Shown: positions 18,338-26,100 of the stretch, piece by piece
Layout: each line of letters opens with the position of its first letter
How positions within the stretch are numbered: position 1 is the first letter of the stretch
NCBI GenBank assembly: GCA_014905635.1
Contig: JABVCE010000002.1
Span: 868,001-932,000 of the forward strand
Length of the DNA stretch: 64,000 nucleotides
Source: Scenedesmus sp. PABB004
Lineage: Eukaryota
Direction of reading: 5' to 3'
The notes under the pieces: generated by a model
Seen by the model: the letters and a program-made list of their open reading frames with translations, nothing else
Databases searched by the model: none
What the model was told of the DNA's origin: nothing
Translations under genes and position numbers: made by a program

Positions 18338-21031
18338 TCAGCCCACCGGCAGCAGCCCGCCGGGCGCGGCGTACAGCAGGCGCGCCGCGGTCTCGCCCAC
18401 CACCGCGCGCCACTCGCGCAGCCGCGCCTCCAGCGCGTCGGCGGCCGCGGCCTCCAGCAGCCCGCTGTCGCGCAGCGCGCCCCAGCGCACCGGCTGCTTC
18501 AGCAGGAACAGCAGCTGCGCGTCCAGCGCGCCGCCGCCGCCGCCGCCGCCGCCCGCCGCCGGCGGCAGCGGGCGCGGCACCGACAGGTTTGGCGCGACGT
18601 CCGCGCCGGGCAGGGCGCTGAGCGCGACGTACGGCGCGGCGTCGAGCGCGGCGCGCGCGCCCGCGTCGAGGCGCACCCACAGCTGCGCCGCGGGGCAGAG
18701 CAGCTCCGACGGCGCGTACTCGGCCTTGTAGGCCATCTTGGGGCAGGTGTGGATGTAGTAGCCGAGGTAGTAGTAGGCCAGCGCCGGCGCGCGCGCCGCC
18801 GCCGCGCCGACCCAGCCGATCTCGCGCAGCGCGCCGTAGCGCCCCGGGCTGAGACCCGCGAGCGCGGGGTCCCAGAAAAAGTACTTGGACGACAGGCACC
18901 TGCGCGGACGGGCGGGCGGGCGGGCGCGCGCGGGCGCGGGGCGGGCGCGGGGCGGGCGGGGGTGGGCGCGGCGCGCGGCGCGGCGCGGGCGCGGCGCAGG
19001 CGCGCGGCGCGTGGCGGCGCGTGGTGGCCGCGGCGCGCACCGCGGCAGCACGTCGACGACGCCCACCGCCACGAGGCGGCCGTCCAGCCAGTACTGCTGG
19101 TGAAAGCTGCCGTACCCGCACGCCGGCCCGCCGGCGCCCGCCGCGGCGCCCGCCTCGGCGCCGGCGCCGCCGGGCGCCTCCGGCGGCGGTGGCGGCACGG
19201 GGATGAGGGGCGTGTCGACCAGGAAACTCCGGTACCGCGCGGGCGTGAGCTCGGCGGGGTCGTCGCCGTGCTGCCCCACCTGCGGCGCGCGCGGCGGCTG
19301 GGCGGCGGCGAGCGCGGCGCTGACGCCCTGCTGCTGCGCGCACGCGGCCCTGGCTGCTGCGCTGCCGCGCGGCCCTGGCACTCGCCTGGTACTTGACGTA
19401 GAGGTCAAACTCCTCCTGTATGAACTGGCTGGGCACCATGCGCACCTCCAGCATGTGCGCCCGGCCCGCTTGGCCACGCGCCGCCTGCTGCTGCTCCCGC
19501 TGCTGCTGCTGCGGCCGCTGCTGCTGCTCCTGCTGCTCCTGCGGCCGCTGCTGCTGCTCCTGTGGCCGCTGCTGCTGCTCCTGCTGCTCCTGCGGCCGCT
19601 GCTGCGACCGCTCCTGCTGCTGCTGCTGCTGCTGCTGCTGATCCTGCTGCTGCTGCTGCTGATCCTGCCGCTGCTGCGGCGCAGGCTGCGCGCCGCCGGC
19701 CTGCGCCGCCGCGCCGCCGGCAAAGTTGATGTGCCCCTTGGCGGCGCTCGCGGTCACGCCCAGCGCCGGCTGCGCCGCGGCAGCCAGGTCATTGAAGCGC
19801 GCTGCCAGCGCCGCCGCCAGCTCTTCGGCCGGCAGCGGTGCGGCGGCACCGCTGCCGCCGCCGCCGCCCGGCGCCTGCTGCGCCTTGCGCGCCGCCGCCG
19901 CGAGCGCAAAGGCGGCCGCGCTGGTCATGCTGACGCCAGCCGGCAGCTTGGACCGCTTCCCCGGCGGCGGTGCGACCACGCGCACCGGCGGCGCGCCGGA
20001 TGCCGGCAGCTGTCCGTCCGCGCCCAGCGCCGCCACCGCCGCCTGCAGCACCGCCTCCACCTGCCGCAGCAGCGCCGCGGCGACGTCCTGCGGCGGCGCC
20101 TGCTGCTCGGCGCCGTCGCCGGCTCCGGGCTGGCTGCCGCCCGTGCAAACGCGCTTGGGCTCGCGCCGCGCGCCCCGGGCCCTGCTGCTGCCCCTGCTGC
20201 CGCTGCTGCGTCTGGCTCGTCCGCCATGTGCACGTCACCGCCCTGCTGCTCCAGCGTGCCTGCAGACGGGCGGGCGGGCGCGTGGGCCTGGCGGCGCGCG
20301 CGCGGTGGTGTGGTCGCCCGCCCCCCCCCCCTGGCTCCCGGCGGCGCACCGTCCAGGAACTGCTCCCACTTGCGCAGCAGGCGCTTGTGTGCCCTGCTGG
20401 GCTGGTACTGCCGCACGTCCAGGCGGATCGTGTACTGGCGGCAGCACGTCTGCTCCAGGTCGGGCTGCGCACGGCGCGGCGCGGAGCACGCGGCGGGGCG
20501 GTGTGAGGGCGCGCGCCGCACCGCGCCGCACCGCGCGGCGTGGCGCAGGCGGGCGGCCGCCGCACCTTGTAGAGGAAGCGACCAGACCGCCTCCAGCCCT
20601 GGTCCAGCAGCTCTGCGCGGCGCCGCGCAGCGACGGGCGGCGCAAGCTCGGCTGCAGGTGACCGCGGTGGCCCCATGCCGTGGCGCCCTCCGCCCACCCA
20701 CACGCCCGGCGCCGGGCGGGGCCTGCGGCGCCGGCGGCGCGGCCGCGCAGCGCTGCTGCTGCGCGCACCCTGGTAGTCGTGCACCGTCAGCCGGTACGCG
20801 TGCATGCCTGCGCCGGACGGTCGAGCGGGCCGTGGCGATCAGCGGGAACGCCGCGGGAGCGGTGGCGGCGGCCCGCACCGCGAGGGCGGGCCGCGAGCGG
20901 CGCCCGCGGCGCTCGGCGCCCCGCCCACCGTGGCTGACGCTGGTGCCGCCCCCGCAGTAGCCGCATGTCGAGGTGTAGGCGCCGCTGTCCTGTATGAGGG
21001 AGAAGCCGCGCTGCGCGCTGCCGCCCTGCAT
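18338..21031 (-). CDS. ATE1: Arginyl-tRNA--protein transferase
   Basis: CGYC, LLDQGWRRSGRFLYK, PDLEQTCCRQYTIRLD, EEFDLYVKYQ|VGQHGD, YGSFHQQYWLDGRLVAVGVVDVLP, LSSKYFFWDP, YYYLGYYIHTCPKMAYKAEYAPSELLCP. Confidence 0.95.
19486..19680 (-). repeat. Coding polyglutamine/QEQQQRP repeats in ATE1
   Basis: CTG-rich imperfect tandem repeats encoding QQQQQDQQQ and RPQEQQEQQQ units. Confidence 0.85.
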
Positions 21032-21283: not shown

Positions 21284-21341
21284 TCACTCCATCCACTTCT
21301 TGAGGTAGTTGGTCACAAACTGCGCGGCAGCGAGGGGGGAC

Positions 21342-21372
<31 letters not shown>

Positions 21373-22506
21373 GCGGCGGCGCGGCGGCGGCGGCGGCGGC
21401 GCGTGAGCCCTCCTCCTCGCAGGGGCGCAGCGGCGCGCGGGCGCAGGGGGGCGCATGGGCGCGGCGGCGCAGGGGCGCGCAGCGGCGCGCGCGCGCCTGG
21501 CGCGGCGTGACGGCCTCGACCACGATGGGCATGAAGGCGTGGTTGGCGCCGCACAGCTCGCTGCACTGGCCGTAGAACACGCCGGGGCGCTGGATGGTGA
21601 CCCACACCTGGTTGAGGCGGCCGGGGATGGCGTCGATCTTCACGCCCAGCGACGGCACCGCCCAGGAGTGGATGACGTCGCTGCTCGTGACCAGCAGGCG
21701 CACGAGGCTGTTGGTCGGCAGCACGAGGCGCTCGTCGCAGTCGAGCAGCCGGATCTGCCCCGGCTCCACGTCTGCGCGCGGCGCAGCGCGGTCGGCGCGC
21801 GTGGGCGGCCCGGGCGCGAGCGTCCCGCCGCTGCGGCGGCGCGCTCGGCCTGCTGCGCCCGCCGCCGCTGCGCCCGCCGCCGCTGCGCCCAGGAGCCCGC
21901 TGCCCGGCCAGCAGCAGGCCTGCTGCCGCAGCCGCCGCCGCCGCGGGGGCGCGCCGTGCGTCGCGGCGGGGGCGCACCGGTGAGCATGTAGGCGTCAAAC
22001 TCATACTTGGCGCTCTTGGGCTCCTCCTCGCCCTTGGCCAGCAGCGCGTCGGTCACGCGCTTGCGCAGCTCGCGCCGGAACGAGGGGTCGGCCTTGAGCT
22101 TGGCCTTCAGCGCCTCGCGCGCCGACTGCGCGCACCGGGGCAGCGCGCGGGCGGGGCGGCGGGGTCGGCGGCGCCGCGGCCGACTGCCCGCTGCTGCCCC
22201 TCCCCCGTCGCTGCCACACGCCGGCGCCCGACCGCCGGGGCCCCGCCGCGCGCTGCCGCCGCCGCCGCCGCCGCCGGCGCTGGCTCGGCGACCGTGCTGC
22301 GGGGCGTGAGGCCACCCGGCGCGACGCCGGCTGGGGCGGGGCGCCGCTGCCGCCGCTGGCCTGCACCTGCCCTCCGCCGCTGCTGCCCGCCCCCTGCCGC
22401 CCCCGCAGGCGCTGCCGCGCCGCCCATGGCCACGTGGCACCGCCCGCAGCCCATTCAGCCCCCGCCCGGGGTCTGCCGCGGCCGGGAGGCGCACCTGGTC
22501 GACCAT
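21284..22506 (-). CDS. COX2B: Nuclear-encoded cytochrome c oxidase subunit IIb (C-terminal CuA half of split COX2)
   Basis: [114 protein letters not shown]. It has spliceosomal introns and no TM helices. Confidence 0.96.
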
Positions 22507-23121: not shown

Positions 23122-26100
23122 ATGGTGGTGCGCACGTACGAGGAGGTGACGCCCCGGCGCGCCGCCGCCGCGACCGCGCCGCGGGGGCAGCGCCTGGGGT
23201 GCCGACGCCCGCCGCCGACGCTGCGGTGGGCGCCGCTTGACGCAGGAGGCGGCGTTCATCCGCCAGGTCAGCGACGTGCGCTACGACGTGTCCCCGGGAT
23301 TTGTGCCGGGCATGCGCGTGCCGGGCACGTTTTACGTCAACGCCGCGCTCAAGGACCTGCTCTTCGATGAGCTCAAGCAGCACGTCGCGCGCGGCGAGGT
23401 GCGGCAGCGGCGGCGGCGCGGCCACGGCCGCGCGACGGGCGGGGCGGGGCGGGGGCGGCCGAGCCGGCGGGCGGGGAGGAGCCGGCGCGCGGCGGCGGCG
23501 CGGCGGCGGCCGGCAGGCGGGGGCCGGGCCCCGCGCCGCGCCGAGACGTGCCGCCGCGCCGCCGCGCCCCGCAGCACGGCGGCTTCCTGCCGGCGGTGAA
23601 GCAGCTGGCCAACGTCGCGGCGCTGCCGGGCATCGTCAAGGTGCGCGCGGGGCGCGCGTGTGCGCGCCGGCGACGCGCTGCGCCAGGCCGCGGCCGCCCG
23701 ACGCTGCCGCCGCCGCCGCCGCCGCGCCCGCCCGGGCAGCGCTCGATCGCGCTGCCAGACGTGCACAGTGGCTATGGCTTTGCCATCGGCAACGTCGCGG
23801 CGTTTGACATGAACGACCCGGAGGTGCGCCACGCGCGGCGGGGGCGTGCCGCGCGTCGCCGCCGTGCCCCGGCCGCCGCTGTCCCCCGCCGCCGCCGCCG
23901 ACCCCTACCGCCGCCCCCGCCGCCGCCCGCACGCGGTCAGGCGGTGGTGTCGCCCGGCGGCGTGGGGTTTGACATCAACTGCGGCGTGCGGCTCATCCGC
24001 ACCAACCTCACGCTCGCAGACGTGGAGCCACTCAAGGAGCAGCTCGCGCAGGTGGGGGCCGCCCCGCGCGGCGCCAGGGGGGGGCCCCCGGCGCCCGCGC
24101 GCCGGCTGGCAGCAGCGCGCGCGCCCGCCGCGCCGCCCGGCCCGCGCGTGCACGCCTCACTACCGACCCCGCGCGCCGCCGCCGCCGCCGCTGGCCTGCC
24201 GCGGTCGCGCGTGCGTTCAGTCGCTGTTTGACCACATCCCGGTGGGCGTGGGCAGCCAGGGCATCATCCCCACGTCTGCCAAGGACCTCGAGGCCGCGCT
24301 GGAGATGGGCATGGACTGGAGCCTGCGGTGAGCGGGCGGGCCAGCGCCGCGGCGGCGCGCGCGTGACACGCAGCCGCGGCGCGGGCCAGGCGCCGGCCGC
24401 CCAGGCCGCACGCTGCGGCACCGCACTCACTGTGCGCGTGCGCGCGCGCAGCGAGGGCTACTCGTGGGCGGAGGACAAGGAGCACTGCGAGGAGTACGGG
24501 CGCATGCTCAACGCAGACCCCAGCAAGGTGCGCGCCACGCGGCGGCGGCGCCCCGGCGGCGCCCCTGCGCGCGCCCCGCGCGCCGTGCGCCCGGCGCGGC
24601 GCGCCCTGCGCGAGCGCGCCCGCGCGCCGCAGGTGTCGGCACGCGCCAAGAAGCGCGGCCTGCCCCAGATGGGCACGCTGGGGGCGGGCAACCACTACGC
24701 AGAGATCCAGGTCGCCCACCCGCGCGCACGCGCACGCACGCGCCGCGCCGCACCGCGCCTCGGCCTGCGCGCGCGCGCACCTCCCTGCTCCCTCCCCCCA
24801 AGAAACACACACACACACACGCCACAGCAGCATGCCCCCGCTCCCCCCGTGCCCCCGTGGTGCGTCCAGGTGGTTGAAGAGGTGTACGACGAGCCCGCGG
24901 CGCGCAAGATGGGCATCGACACGCCCGGCCAGGTGTGCGTGATGATCCACAGCGGCAGCCGCGGCCTGGGCCACCAGGTCGCGACTGACGCGCTGGTCGA
25001 GATGGAGGCGGCCATGGCGCGCGACGGCATCGCAACCAACGACCGCCAGCTCGCGTGCGCGCGCATCGGCAGCCGCGAGGGCCAGGTGCGCGCCGCGCCG
25101 CGCCCAGTGCCGCGCCCCGCGCCCGCGCGCAGCGCGCCGCCGCGCGCCGCGCACAGCACGCCGCCGACCGCCGCGGCCGCCGCCGCCGCCGCCTCCCTCC
25201 TCGCGCAATCGGGGGGCTGATGTCACACGGCAGAACTACCTGTCCGCCATGGCGTGCGCGGCCAACTACGCGTGGGTCAATCGCAGCAGCATGACCTTCC
25301 TCGCGCGCCAGGCGTTTGCAAAGATGTTTGCCTCCACCCCCGACGACCTCGACATGGCCCTCGTCTACGACGTCAGCCACAACATCGCAAAGGTGAGCGC
25401 CCGCCGCACCGTGCGGGCGCGGGCGCGGGCGGGCGGGCACGGGCGTGGGCGTGGGCGCGCCGCGCTGCCGCCAATGCCACCGCCGCCGCACGCCGCGCGT
25501 CGCGCCGCCGCCGCCGCCACGCGGGGTCACGCGCCTCGTCGCCGCGCCGCGTGCCGCGCCGCAGGTTGAGGAGCACGTGGTGGACGGGCGGCTCATGCGG
25601 CTGCTGGTGCACCGCAAGGGCAGCACGCGCGCCTTCCCGCCGCACCACCCGCTCATACCAGTGGACTACCAGCTCACAGGTGACTGCGCTGCGCTGCGCT
25701 GCTGCGGTGGGGGGCTGCGGCGGCGGGCTGCGGCGGGCGGGCGGGCGGGCGGGCGGCGGCGGCCAGGCGGCGATCATGCAGTCGCCCGGGCGCCTGGCCC
25801 AGGCGCCGCCGCCGCGCCGCCGCCGCGCCGTCGGGCGGCGCGCGCAGGGCAGCCGGTGCTGATCGGCGGCACGATGGGCACCTGCAGCTACGTGCTGACC
25901 GGCACGGAGACGGGCTTTGCGGAGACGTTTGGCTCGACCTGCCACGGCGCGGGTGCGCGGCGCCGCGCGTGCCGATCTCCGCGCGCAGGGCGGCGCGCGC
26001 GCGTGCGAGCCCCGCGCGCCCGGCCCGCCCCGCCGCGGCGCGCAGGCCGCAGCCGCAGCCGCAACAACAGCCGGCACAAGCTGGAGTACACGCAGGTGGG

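Follow-up and report, generated by a model that had tools for sequence, protein, structure and literature searches.

A predicted folded domain resembling the N-terminal Add1 domain of arginyl-tRNA synthetase within the arginyltransferase ATE1 of Scenedesmus and other green-lineage organisms

The window analyzed here, a 64,000-nucleotide stretch of Scenedesmus sp. PABB004 (assembly GCA_014905635.1, contig JABVCE010000002.1, positions 868,001 to 932,000 of the forward strand), carries on its minus strand a gene for the arginyltransferase ATE1, the two conserved parts of which (ATE_N and ATE_C) are separated by an insert encoding a domain that is very probably homologous to the N-terminal Add1 domain (PF03485) of arginyl-tRNA synthetase (ArgRS). 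The gene was delimited from the exons of P0002, the deposited protein ("ATE1 [Scenedesmus sp. PABB004]", 787 amino acids), from Pfam matches, and from the alignment of human ATE1 (8tzv_A) to both halves; exon ends are approximate wherever codons are split. The features of the gene, in window positions, are as follows.

18338..21031, minus strand: ATE1 gene, eight coding pieces
21031-21029, minus strand: start ATG of ATE1
18340-18338, minus strand: stop codon of ATE1
21031-20927, 20808-20770, 20614-20566 and 20464-20348, minus strand: coding pieces 1-4 (approximate), mapped from P0002
20257-20234, 20129-19386, 19279-19040 and 18898-18341, minus strand: coding pieces 5-8 (approximate), mapped from P0002
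20348..20464, minus strand: exon for the end of ATE_N (PDLEQTCC...KWEQFLDG; PF04376), the helix preceding the insertion site
19386..20129, minus strand: single exon holding the whole insert (P0002 amino acids 274-521)
19716..20093, minus strand: Add1-like domain of about 125 amino acids, ending KGHINF (AlphaFold2 model mf9265a0dc7f3, VIA-align, hhalign)
19458..19721, minus strand: Gln-rich low-complexity linker of about 88 amino acids leading from the domain to the GNAT core (from the translation; Pfam returns low-complexity noise only)
18341..19279, minus strand: ATE_C, the catalytic GNAT half, as two exons and the intron between them (PF04377, E 4e-31)

The window exons have the make-up of a eukaryotic ATE1, with an ATE_N that carries the CGYC motif (PF04376 match at 20351-20464, E 1.8e-8) and an ATE_C, and human ATE1 matches P0002 in two stretches at E 5.6e-72. 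The exon that holds the insert encodes, in order, an N-side linker, the Add1-like domain, the Gln-rich linker, and finally the first strand of the core (HMLEVRMVP...KYQ). The initial annotation of this DNA had placed an insert between the N- and C-terminal domains of ATE1, and this is what the gene structure shows: the peptides it quoted (LLRQVEAVLQAAVAAL, VRVVAPP, TSAAAFALAAAARK, AEELAAALAARFN, and VTASAAKGHINF) share one frame (minus-strand translation, 19420-20234) and are flanked by the ATE_N and ATE_C matches, the minus strand of 19722-20090 encodes 123 amino acids (VAAALLRQ...KGHINF), and P0002 is 100% identical to the insert plus the C-terminal exon. The G+C content is about 79% across the whole window, and stop-free frames hundreds of codons long occur in all six frames; because of this, an open frame is no evidence by itself, and the coding status of the insert was therefore judged by conservation.

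The module is 54% identical to that of P0004 (an open reading frame from a transcriptome entry) and 52% identical to that of P0005 (from another Scenedesmus), and 18-33% identical to the modules of more distant algal ATE1s; the Gln-rich stretches that flank it are not kept among relatives. A profile of 13 algal insert modules retrieved 82 proteins at E<=1e-3 (8 at E<=1e-10) among 1.84 billion representatives, and ATE_N and/or ATE_C is present in every representative match of sufficient length for a judgment. A full-length ATE1 profile retrieved 3003 proteins at E<=1e-10; the module is present in each of the best 120 of these, nearly at full length in 119. The named members of the best 120 are land plants, from liverworts (Riccia, Marchantia, and Calypogeia) through a fern, Pinus, and Amborella to monocots and dicots, and named chlorophyte ATE1s also have the module. 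It ends in GH[LIV]NF in 117 of the best 120 and in GYLN[LF] in two, with no such motif in one.

Some of the retrieved proteins differ from this pattern. Eight marine or metagenomic ATE1s of 418-541 amino acids (P0007, P0011, P0014, P0015, P0017-P0019, and P0023) lack the Add1-like module and have only a short linker, which is acidic. Four others (P0010, P0022, P0024, and P0025) form a subgroup with a divergent module, recognizable by G-[YF]-[VL]-N-[FL], by SS-x-x-CF-x-LAK, and by a first helix that contains Cys/Trp; a marine eukaryote transcriptome is the source of one cluster member. P0004 (693 amino acids) has the insert and lacks the conserved ATE_C stretch CLSSKYFFWDP...LSLG, reading ...VVDILPRYGALQEIHW instead, which may reflect a splice variant or an assembly gap. 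The Gln-rich linker of the window protein (19458-19700, minus strand) contains near-repeats of QQRPQEQQEQQ in the protein and CTGCTG-rich repeats in the DNA, and relatives do not keep it.

The insert is predicted to fold. AlphaFold2, given 130 residues from the window (20102-19713) with 12 homologues as the alignment, returned a model with pLDDT 89, pTM 0.81, and no segment below 50. Its elements (helices 4-28 and 47-52, strand 57-61, helices 63-76 and 92-110, and strands 116-121 and 124-129) follow the order long helix, short helix, strand, helix, helix, beta-hairpin, and the model has the features of the Add1 fold, an alpha/beta domain of about 100 residues with a long N-terminal helix, strands plus helices, and a C-terminal beta-hairpin. 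Elements in the same succession are found at residues 162-289 of a full-length AlphaFold2 model of the ATE of Brachypodium (72-sequence alignment, mean pLDDT 69), in which the flanking residues 121-162 and 292-327 have pLDDT below 50.

The closest structural matches of the insert model are ArgRS N-terminal domains. In a Foldseek search of the Protein Data Bank (PDB), ranks 1-5 are all ArgRS, with 118 columns aligned (for 2zue_A, E 0.085, probability 0.99, and TM 0.51). VIA-align against 48,161 representative chains gave Z>=8 for six chains, each of them an ArgRS N-terminus: Pyrococcus horikoshii (10.9), Plasmodium falciparum (10.1), human (9.9), Thermus thermophilus (9.6), Klebsiella pneumoniae (8.3), and Neisseria gonorrhoeae (8.3). 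These superpose over 83-96 residues with a root-mean-square deviation of 2.0-3.3 A, always at about residues 1-95 of the chain. Yeast ArgRS ranks eighth (Z 6.8); the best unrelated chain reaches Z 7.3, and other unrelated chains at most 5.7. Identity in the ArgRS structural alignments is 23% for Thermus and 26% for Neisseria, versus 15% for human and 16% for Pyrococcus, so that the highest values are to bacterial ArgRS, which is only a hint. In the ESM Atlas features, the three best matches are clusters with PF03485 in 28-30% of their members (0.88-0.85); since these scores fall below the 0.9 line of the tool, they serve as a lead only.

Profile-profile comparison points the same way. In hhalign, 62 ATE1 inserts against 31 ArgRS N-domains gave a probability of 98.2%, E 5.4e-14, and a score of 75.5 over 92 aligned columns, nearly the whole domain. 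Control alignments scored 12.2 and 13.5 (reversed) and at most 15.0 (100 column shuffles), so the resemblance to Add1 is far above chance. With 106 sequences below 70% identity and the window protein first, the result was the same (98.2%, E 5.7e-14), and 88-92 columns aligned across the two comparisons. Among ATE1 homologues, PF03485 is also visible directly, although not with the window sequence alone: it exceeds its gathering score of 21.5 bits in Riccia sorocarpa (P0099, residues 199-315, 25.9 bits, E 1.6e-5) and in Brachypodium (P0191, 21.6 bits). At E<=0.1 the model hits 19 of the 72 named land-plant ATE1s, so that the family ranks third in frequency behind ATE_C and ATE_N (the next is found in 4 of 72), and at E<=0.001 it hits 2 of 77 representatives. 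By eye, the Riccia stretch DYTCNIAFPLAAAVK resembles the E. coli ArgRS stretch DYQANGMMAVAKK.

The likeness to the ArgRS N-terminal domain that the initial annotation had proposed is therefore supported by predicted fold, by hhalign, and by Pfam in two land-plant ATE1s. The same annotation had treated predicted disorder as an outcome that would count against it, had pointed to HHpred, to AlphaFold with Foldseek, and to a survey of Viridiplantae, and had mentioned a similar GHINF in plant ATE1. Each came out in its favor: the insert is predicted folded, both the profile-profile and the structural comparisons lead to ArgRS N-domains, the survey found the module in all of the best 120 proteins and in named chlorophytes, and the plant motif is there as GH[LIV]NF.

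The residues that the module conserves most strongly lie where E. coli ArgRS accommodates nucleotide A20 of tRNA-Arg. Residue make-up was counted in the 106 sequences below 70% identity, and the relevant positions in the window are as follows.

19722..19745, minus strand: A-A-K-G-H-I-N-F, aligned to A78-G79-P80-G81-F82-I83-N84-I85 of E. coli ArgRS, the floor of the A20 pocket
19727-19725, minus strand: Asn of G-H-I-N-F (N in 106 of 106, the sole invariant column)
19733-19731, minus strand: His of G-H-I-N-F (H in 92, Y in 8, and F in 6 of 106)
19736-19734, minus strand: Gly preceding the His (G in 104 of 106)
19745-19743, minus strand: Ala three residues before the Gly (A in 85 of 106)
19920..19928, minus strand: M-T-S, aligned by hhalign to Y39-Q40-A41 of the E. 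coli ArgRS motif FGDYQA, with a register uncertain by one residue

The alignment of A-x-x-G-H-[LI]-N-F with E. coli A78-I85 is ungapped, and places the invariant Asn of the module on N84 and the His/Tyr/Phe two residues earlier on F82. As described in the accessible text of Igloi (2022; PMC8975779), E. coli ArgRS locks A20 by hydrogen bonds from F36, Q40, A78, and N84 and by stacking of F82, with N84 (N79 in T. thermophilus) central to the locking; the available part of another study describes for ArgRS the motif Tyr/Phe-Asn/Gln (PMC3956977). The columns of M-T-S in the 106 sequences are Y in 62 and F in 20, T in 64 and S in 35, and S in 87 and C in 14. Tyr/Phe thus occupies the Y39 position in 82 of 106, and the N42 position is Asn in 49 of 106.

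Our reading is that the ATE1 of this alga, and Viridiplantae ATE1s in general, contain a predicted folded domain, some 125 residues long and homologous to ArgRS Add1, the part of the synthetase that reads the D-loop and the identity nucleotide A20 of tRNA-Arg. This domain probably serves as a tethered reader of tRNA-Arg. It lies in the loop that joins the final helix of the N-terminal half to the following strand of the GNAT core, tethered on both sides by long linkers predicted to be disordered. What the analysis shows is the gene, the insert and its conservation, its predicted fold, its homology to Add1, and the site of insertion; binding of tRNA, reading of A20, and an origin in an ArgRS gene are inferences. 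In the proposed scheme, the GNAT core would hold the acceptor and T arms of the tRNA, while the Add1-like domain, with its linkers leaving the core where the tRNA-elbow helix of human ATE1 leaves it, would dock on the D-loop/variable pocket. A20 could then fit into a pocket made by the small Ala, by the His (Tyr/Phe) that would stack on it, and by the invariant Asn, and such docking would be expected to raise affinity and specificity for Arg-tRNA-Arg. The retention of A20-pocket residues, together with an insertion site that corresponds to the tRNA-binding loop of human ATE1, would be consistent with a role in selecting or channelling Arg-tRNA-Arg, and on balance we favor, by a modest degree, the view that the module reads this tRNA. 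More tentatively, ATE1 may have captured the identity-reading module of an ArgRS gene early in the green lineage, such that plant and green-algal arginyltransferases would choose the arginine donor via A20 at the tRNA elbow, using a pocket taken over from the synthetase.

A number of results weigh against this interpretation. For homology, they concern the reach of the searches. PF03485 was not detected on the window insert at E<=10 (the only match was DHHA1, E 0.077) or on 14 algal homologues at E<=1. The 13-module algal profile found no ArgRS proper among its 82 matches, and in an hmmsearch of the PDB at E<=10 it returned neither ArgRS nor ATE1 and a single designed helical repeat (E 1.6); Foldseek gave no PDB match to the insert model at E<=0.001. 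The ArgRS profile used in hhalign comprised only E. coli and 30 Pseudomonadota N-domains, and the algal profile aligned with the single E. coli N-domain over just 9 columns (1.2%), so that one sequence is insufficient and a real ArgRS profile is required. For tRNA reading, Thr/Ser stands at the Q40 position in 99 of 106 sequences and Leu/Val/Ala at the F36 position, meaning that the module does not retain two of the five contacts to A20 known from E. coli. In yeast ArgRS, mutation of the equivalent pocket residues left kinetics unchanged, according to the available text of PMC8975779. Yeast ATE1, as presented in the accessible part of PMC10115844, touches the acceptor and T arms only and a mini-helix supports arginylation; because yeast ATE1 works with these two arms alone, contact with the D-loop is dispensable for catalysis in general.

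The main rival explanation accepts the same origin for the domain and gives it another function: the module would derive from ArgRS Add1 and would no longer read tRNA, having instead a stabilizing or protein-binding role, for example by packing on the substrate-binding domain like the "variable domain" of yeast ATE1, or by contacting ArgRS or another partner. The two altered A20-contact positions and the kinetically silent yeast ArgRS pocket mutants, as reported, fit such a role, and a tRNA-independent interaction between ATE1 and RARS in mammalian cells, reported in a section heading of PMC9456563, would favor it as well. However, the strongest conservation falls on A20-pocket residues (the Asn in all 106 sequences, and an aromatic or imidazole side chain two residues earlier, likewise in all 106), which a scaffold would not require and which therefore argues against one, and in the Brachypodium model the domain sits on low-confidence linkers and is not packed on the core. 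We consider a scaffold or partner-binding role unlikely, and less so than the other alternatives.

Chance or convergence, in which an Ala-rich low-complexity stretch of a genome with 79% G+C mimics the Add1 pattern, could draw on the extreme composition with all frames open, on the lack of a Pfam match for the window's own sequence, and on HMMER profile searches that fell short of ArgRS; but the module is kept in land-plant proteins of ordinary composition, its hhalign score stands at 75.5 against at most 15.0 in 102 controls, the curated Pfam cut-off is exceeded in two plants, and every one of the six structural matches at Z>=8 is to an ArgRS N-domain, so that this explanation is close to refuted. 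Still less probable is that the segment is absent from the mature algal protein, as an intron or annotation artefact: Tetradesmus obliquus P0003 (493 amino acids) does run from ...QQQQQPGI to AAEFIQEEF without the module, jumping exactly where P0005 continues into it (either because the annotation spliced the domain away or because this is a genuine isoform lacking it), and the deposited model P0002 is clearly imperfect, but the module lies in frame within one exon, retains 52-54% identity to P0004 and P0005 while the flanking Gln-rich linkers are not kept, and is present in all of the best 120 plant ATE1s.

The imperfection of P0002 lies at its N-terminus, where the model joins the upstream COX2b gene (window 21284-22128, minus strand) to ATE1. 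Residues 6-155 of P0002 match residues 4-152 of the cytochrome-c oxidase chain 9f5x_2C (153 residues, complete), the COX2b frame has its own stop directly after ...KKWME, and orthologous ATE1s begin at the Met of MQGGSAQRGF; judged from these sequence features, the fusion looks like an annotation artefact. The intron at 19280-19385 (minus strand), which follows ...DLYVKYQ, starts with GC (CAG|GCGAGT) and ends with CAG; its length of 106 nucleotides restores the frame, and, provided that the deposited model is correct, it belongs to the GC-AG type. Upstream on the opposite strand is a gene encoding RtcB, a tRNA-splicing ligase (window about 23150-24231, plus strand; PF01139, E 2.7e-15 on one piece), and the proximity of this other tRNA-related enzyme to ATE1 is probably coincidental. 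No tRNA genes were found in the window with ARAGORN. Word-based searches with the insert alone returned only the window's own protein.

A literature search that excluded subscription journals found no paper linking arginyltransferase to Arg_tRNA_synt_N, PF03485, or Add1, and in its available part a 2017 review of plant ATEs gives ATE_N and ATE_C as the sole domains. Precomputed Pfam annotation shows PF03485 in 2 of the best 120 proteins; the domain is therefore sporadically visible, and a database user could have noticed it. Both the enzyme and the domain are known, their combination is undescribed in the literature found, and the mechanism suggested is specific. How ATE1 selects Arg-tRNA-Arg is posed as an open question in the yeast structure paper (PMC10115844), in the portion of its text that is accessible.

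In plants, ATE1 is central to oxygen and nitric-oxide sensing via the Cys-Arg/N-degron pathway. No plant ATE1 structure was among the solved chains matched by P0002. If plant ATE1 does contain a tRNA-identity reader derived from a synthetase, this would provide a concrete mechanism with defined residues and a defined nucleotide (A20). It would also be a clear instance of a domain passing from a translation enzyme to one that uses aminoacyl-tRNA outside translation, with a synthetase domain reused by an enzyme that removes aminoacyl-tRNA from translation. Animals would then have arrived at a comparable result by a different route in the same loop, where they evolved a basic helix, and the green-lineage solution would be independent of theirs.

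The comparison with human ATE1 rests on the alignment of P0002 residues 185-264 with residues 23-103 of 8tzv_A and of residues 492-680 with residues 263-441; on this basis, the 227 intervening residues of the alga replace human residues 104-262. Human residues 105-268 form an unstructured loop from helix alpha-C to strand beta-6 of the GNAT domain, in which a basic helix that is conserved (191-220) touches tRNA-Arg at its D arm, T arm, and variable loop, as reported in the accessible text of Lan et al. (2024; PMC11283454). The algal module and the human loop therefore occupy the same insertion site in the core, and the contacts reported for the loop are to the region of the tRNA that Add1 reads in ArgRS. 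Unlike the human loop, the element of the green lineage is an entire folded domain with another origin, and the profile of the 13 algal inserts matched no human or yeast ATE1 chain in the PDB at E<=10. The yeast enzymes (Saccharomyces cerevisiae and Kluyveromyces lactis; 7TIF, 8E3S, and 7WFX) share the same ATE_N and ATE_C core (E 1e-31 to 1e-34 against P0002) and are without the Add1-like module; they have their own "variable domain", situated elsewhere according to the published descriptions available.

The closest known system is ArgRS Add1 itself, with which the module shares its predicted alpha/beta fold and the motifs (D)Y-T-x-N...LA and SP-x-x-[IV]-A-E-x-L, and the A-x-x-G-[HYF]-[LIV]-N-F of the module compares with A-G-P-G-F-I-N in ArgRS. 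The two differ in that the module contains an additional basic loop (about 6 residues) and a variable loop (about 17 residues or more), and the stacking Phe/Tyr of ArgRS Add1 is usually His (92 of 106). ArgRS Add1 forms the N-terminus of a class I synthetase, whereas the module is an internal insert of a GNAT-fold transferase; because it lies between ATE_N and ATE_C, it represents a homologous domain in a new context rather than an ArgRS.

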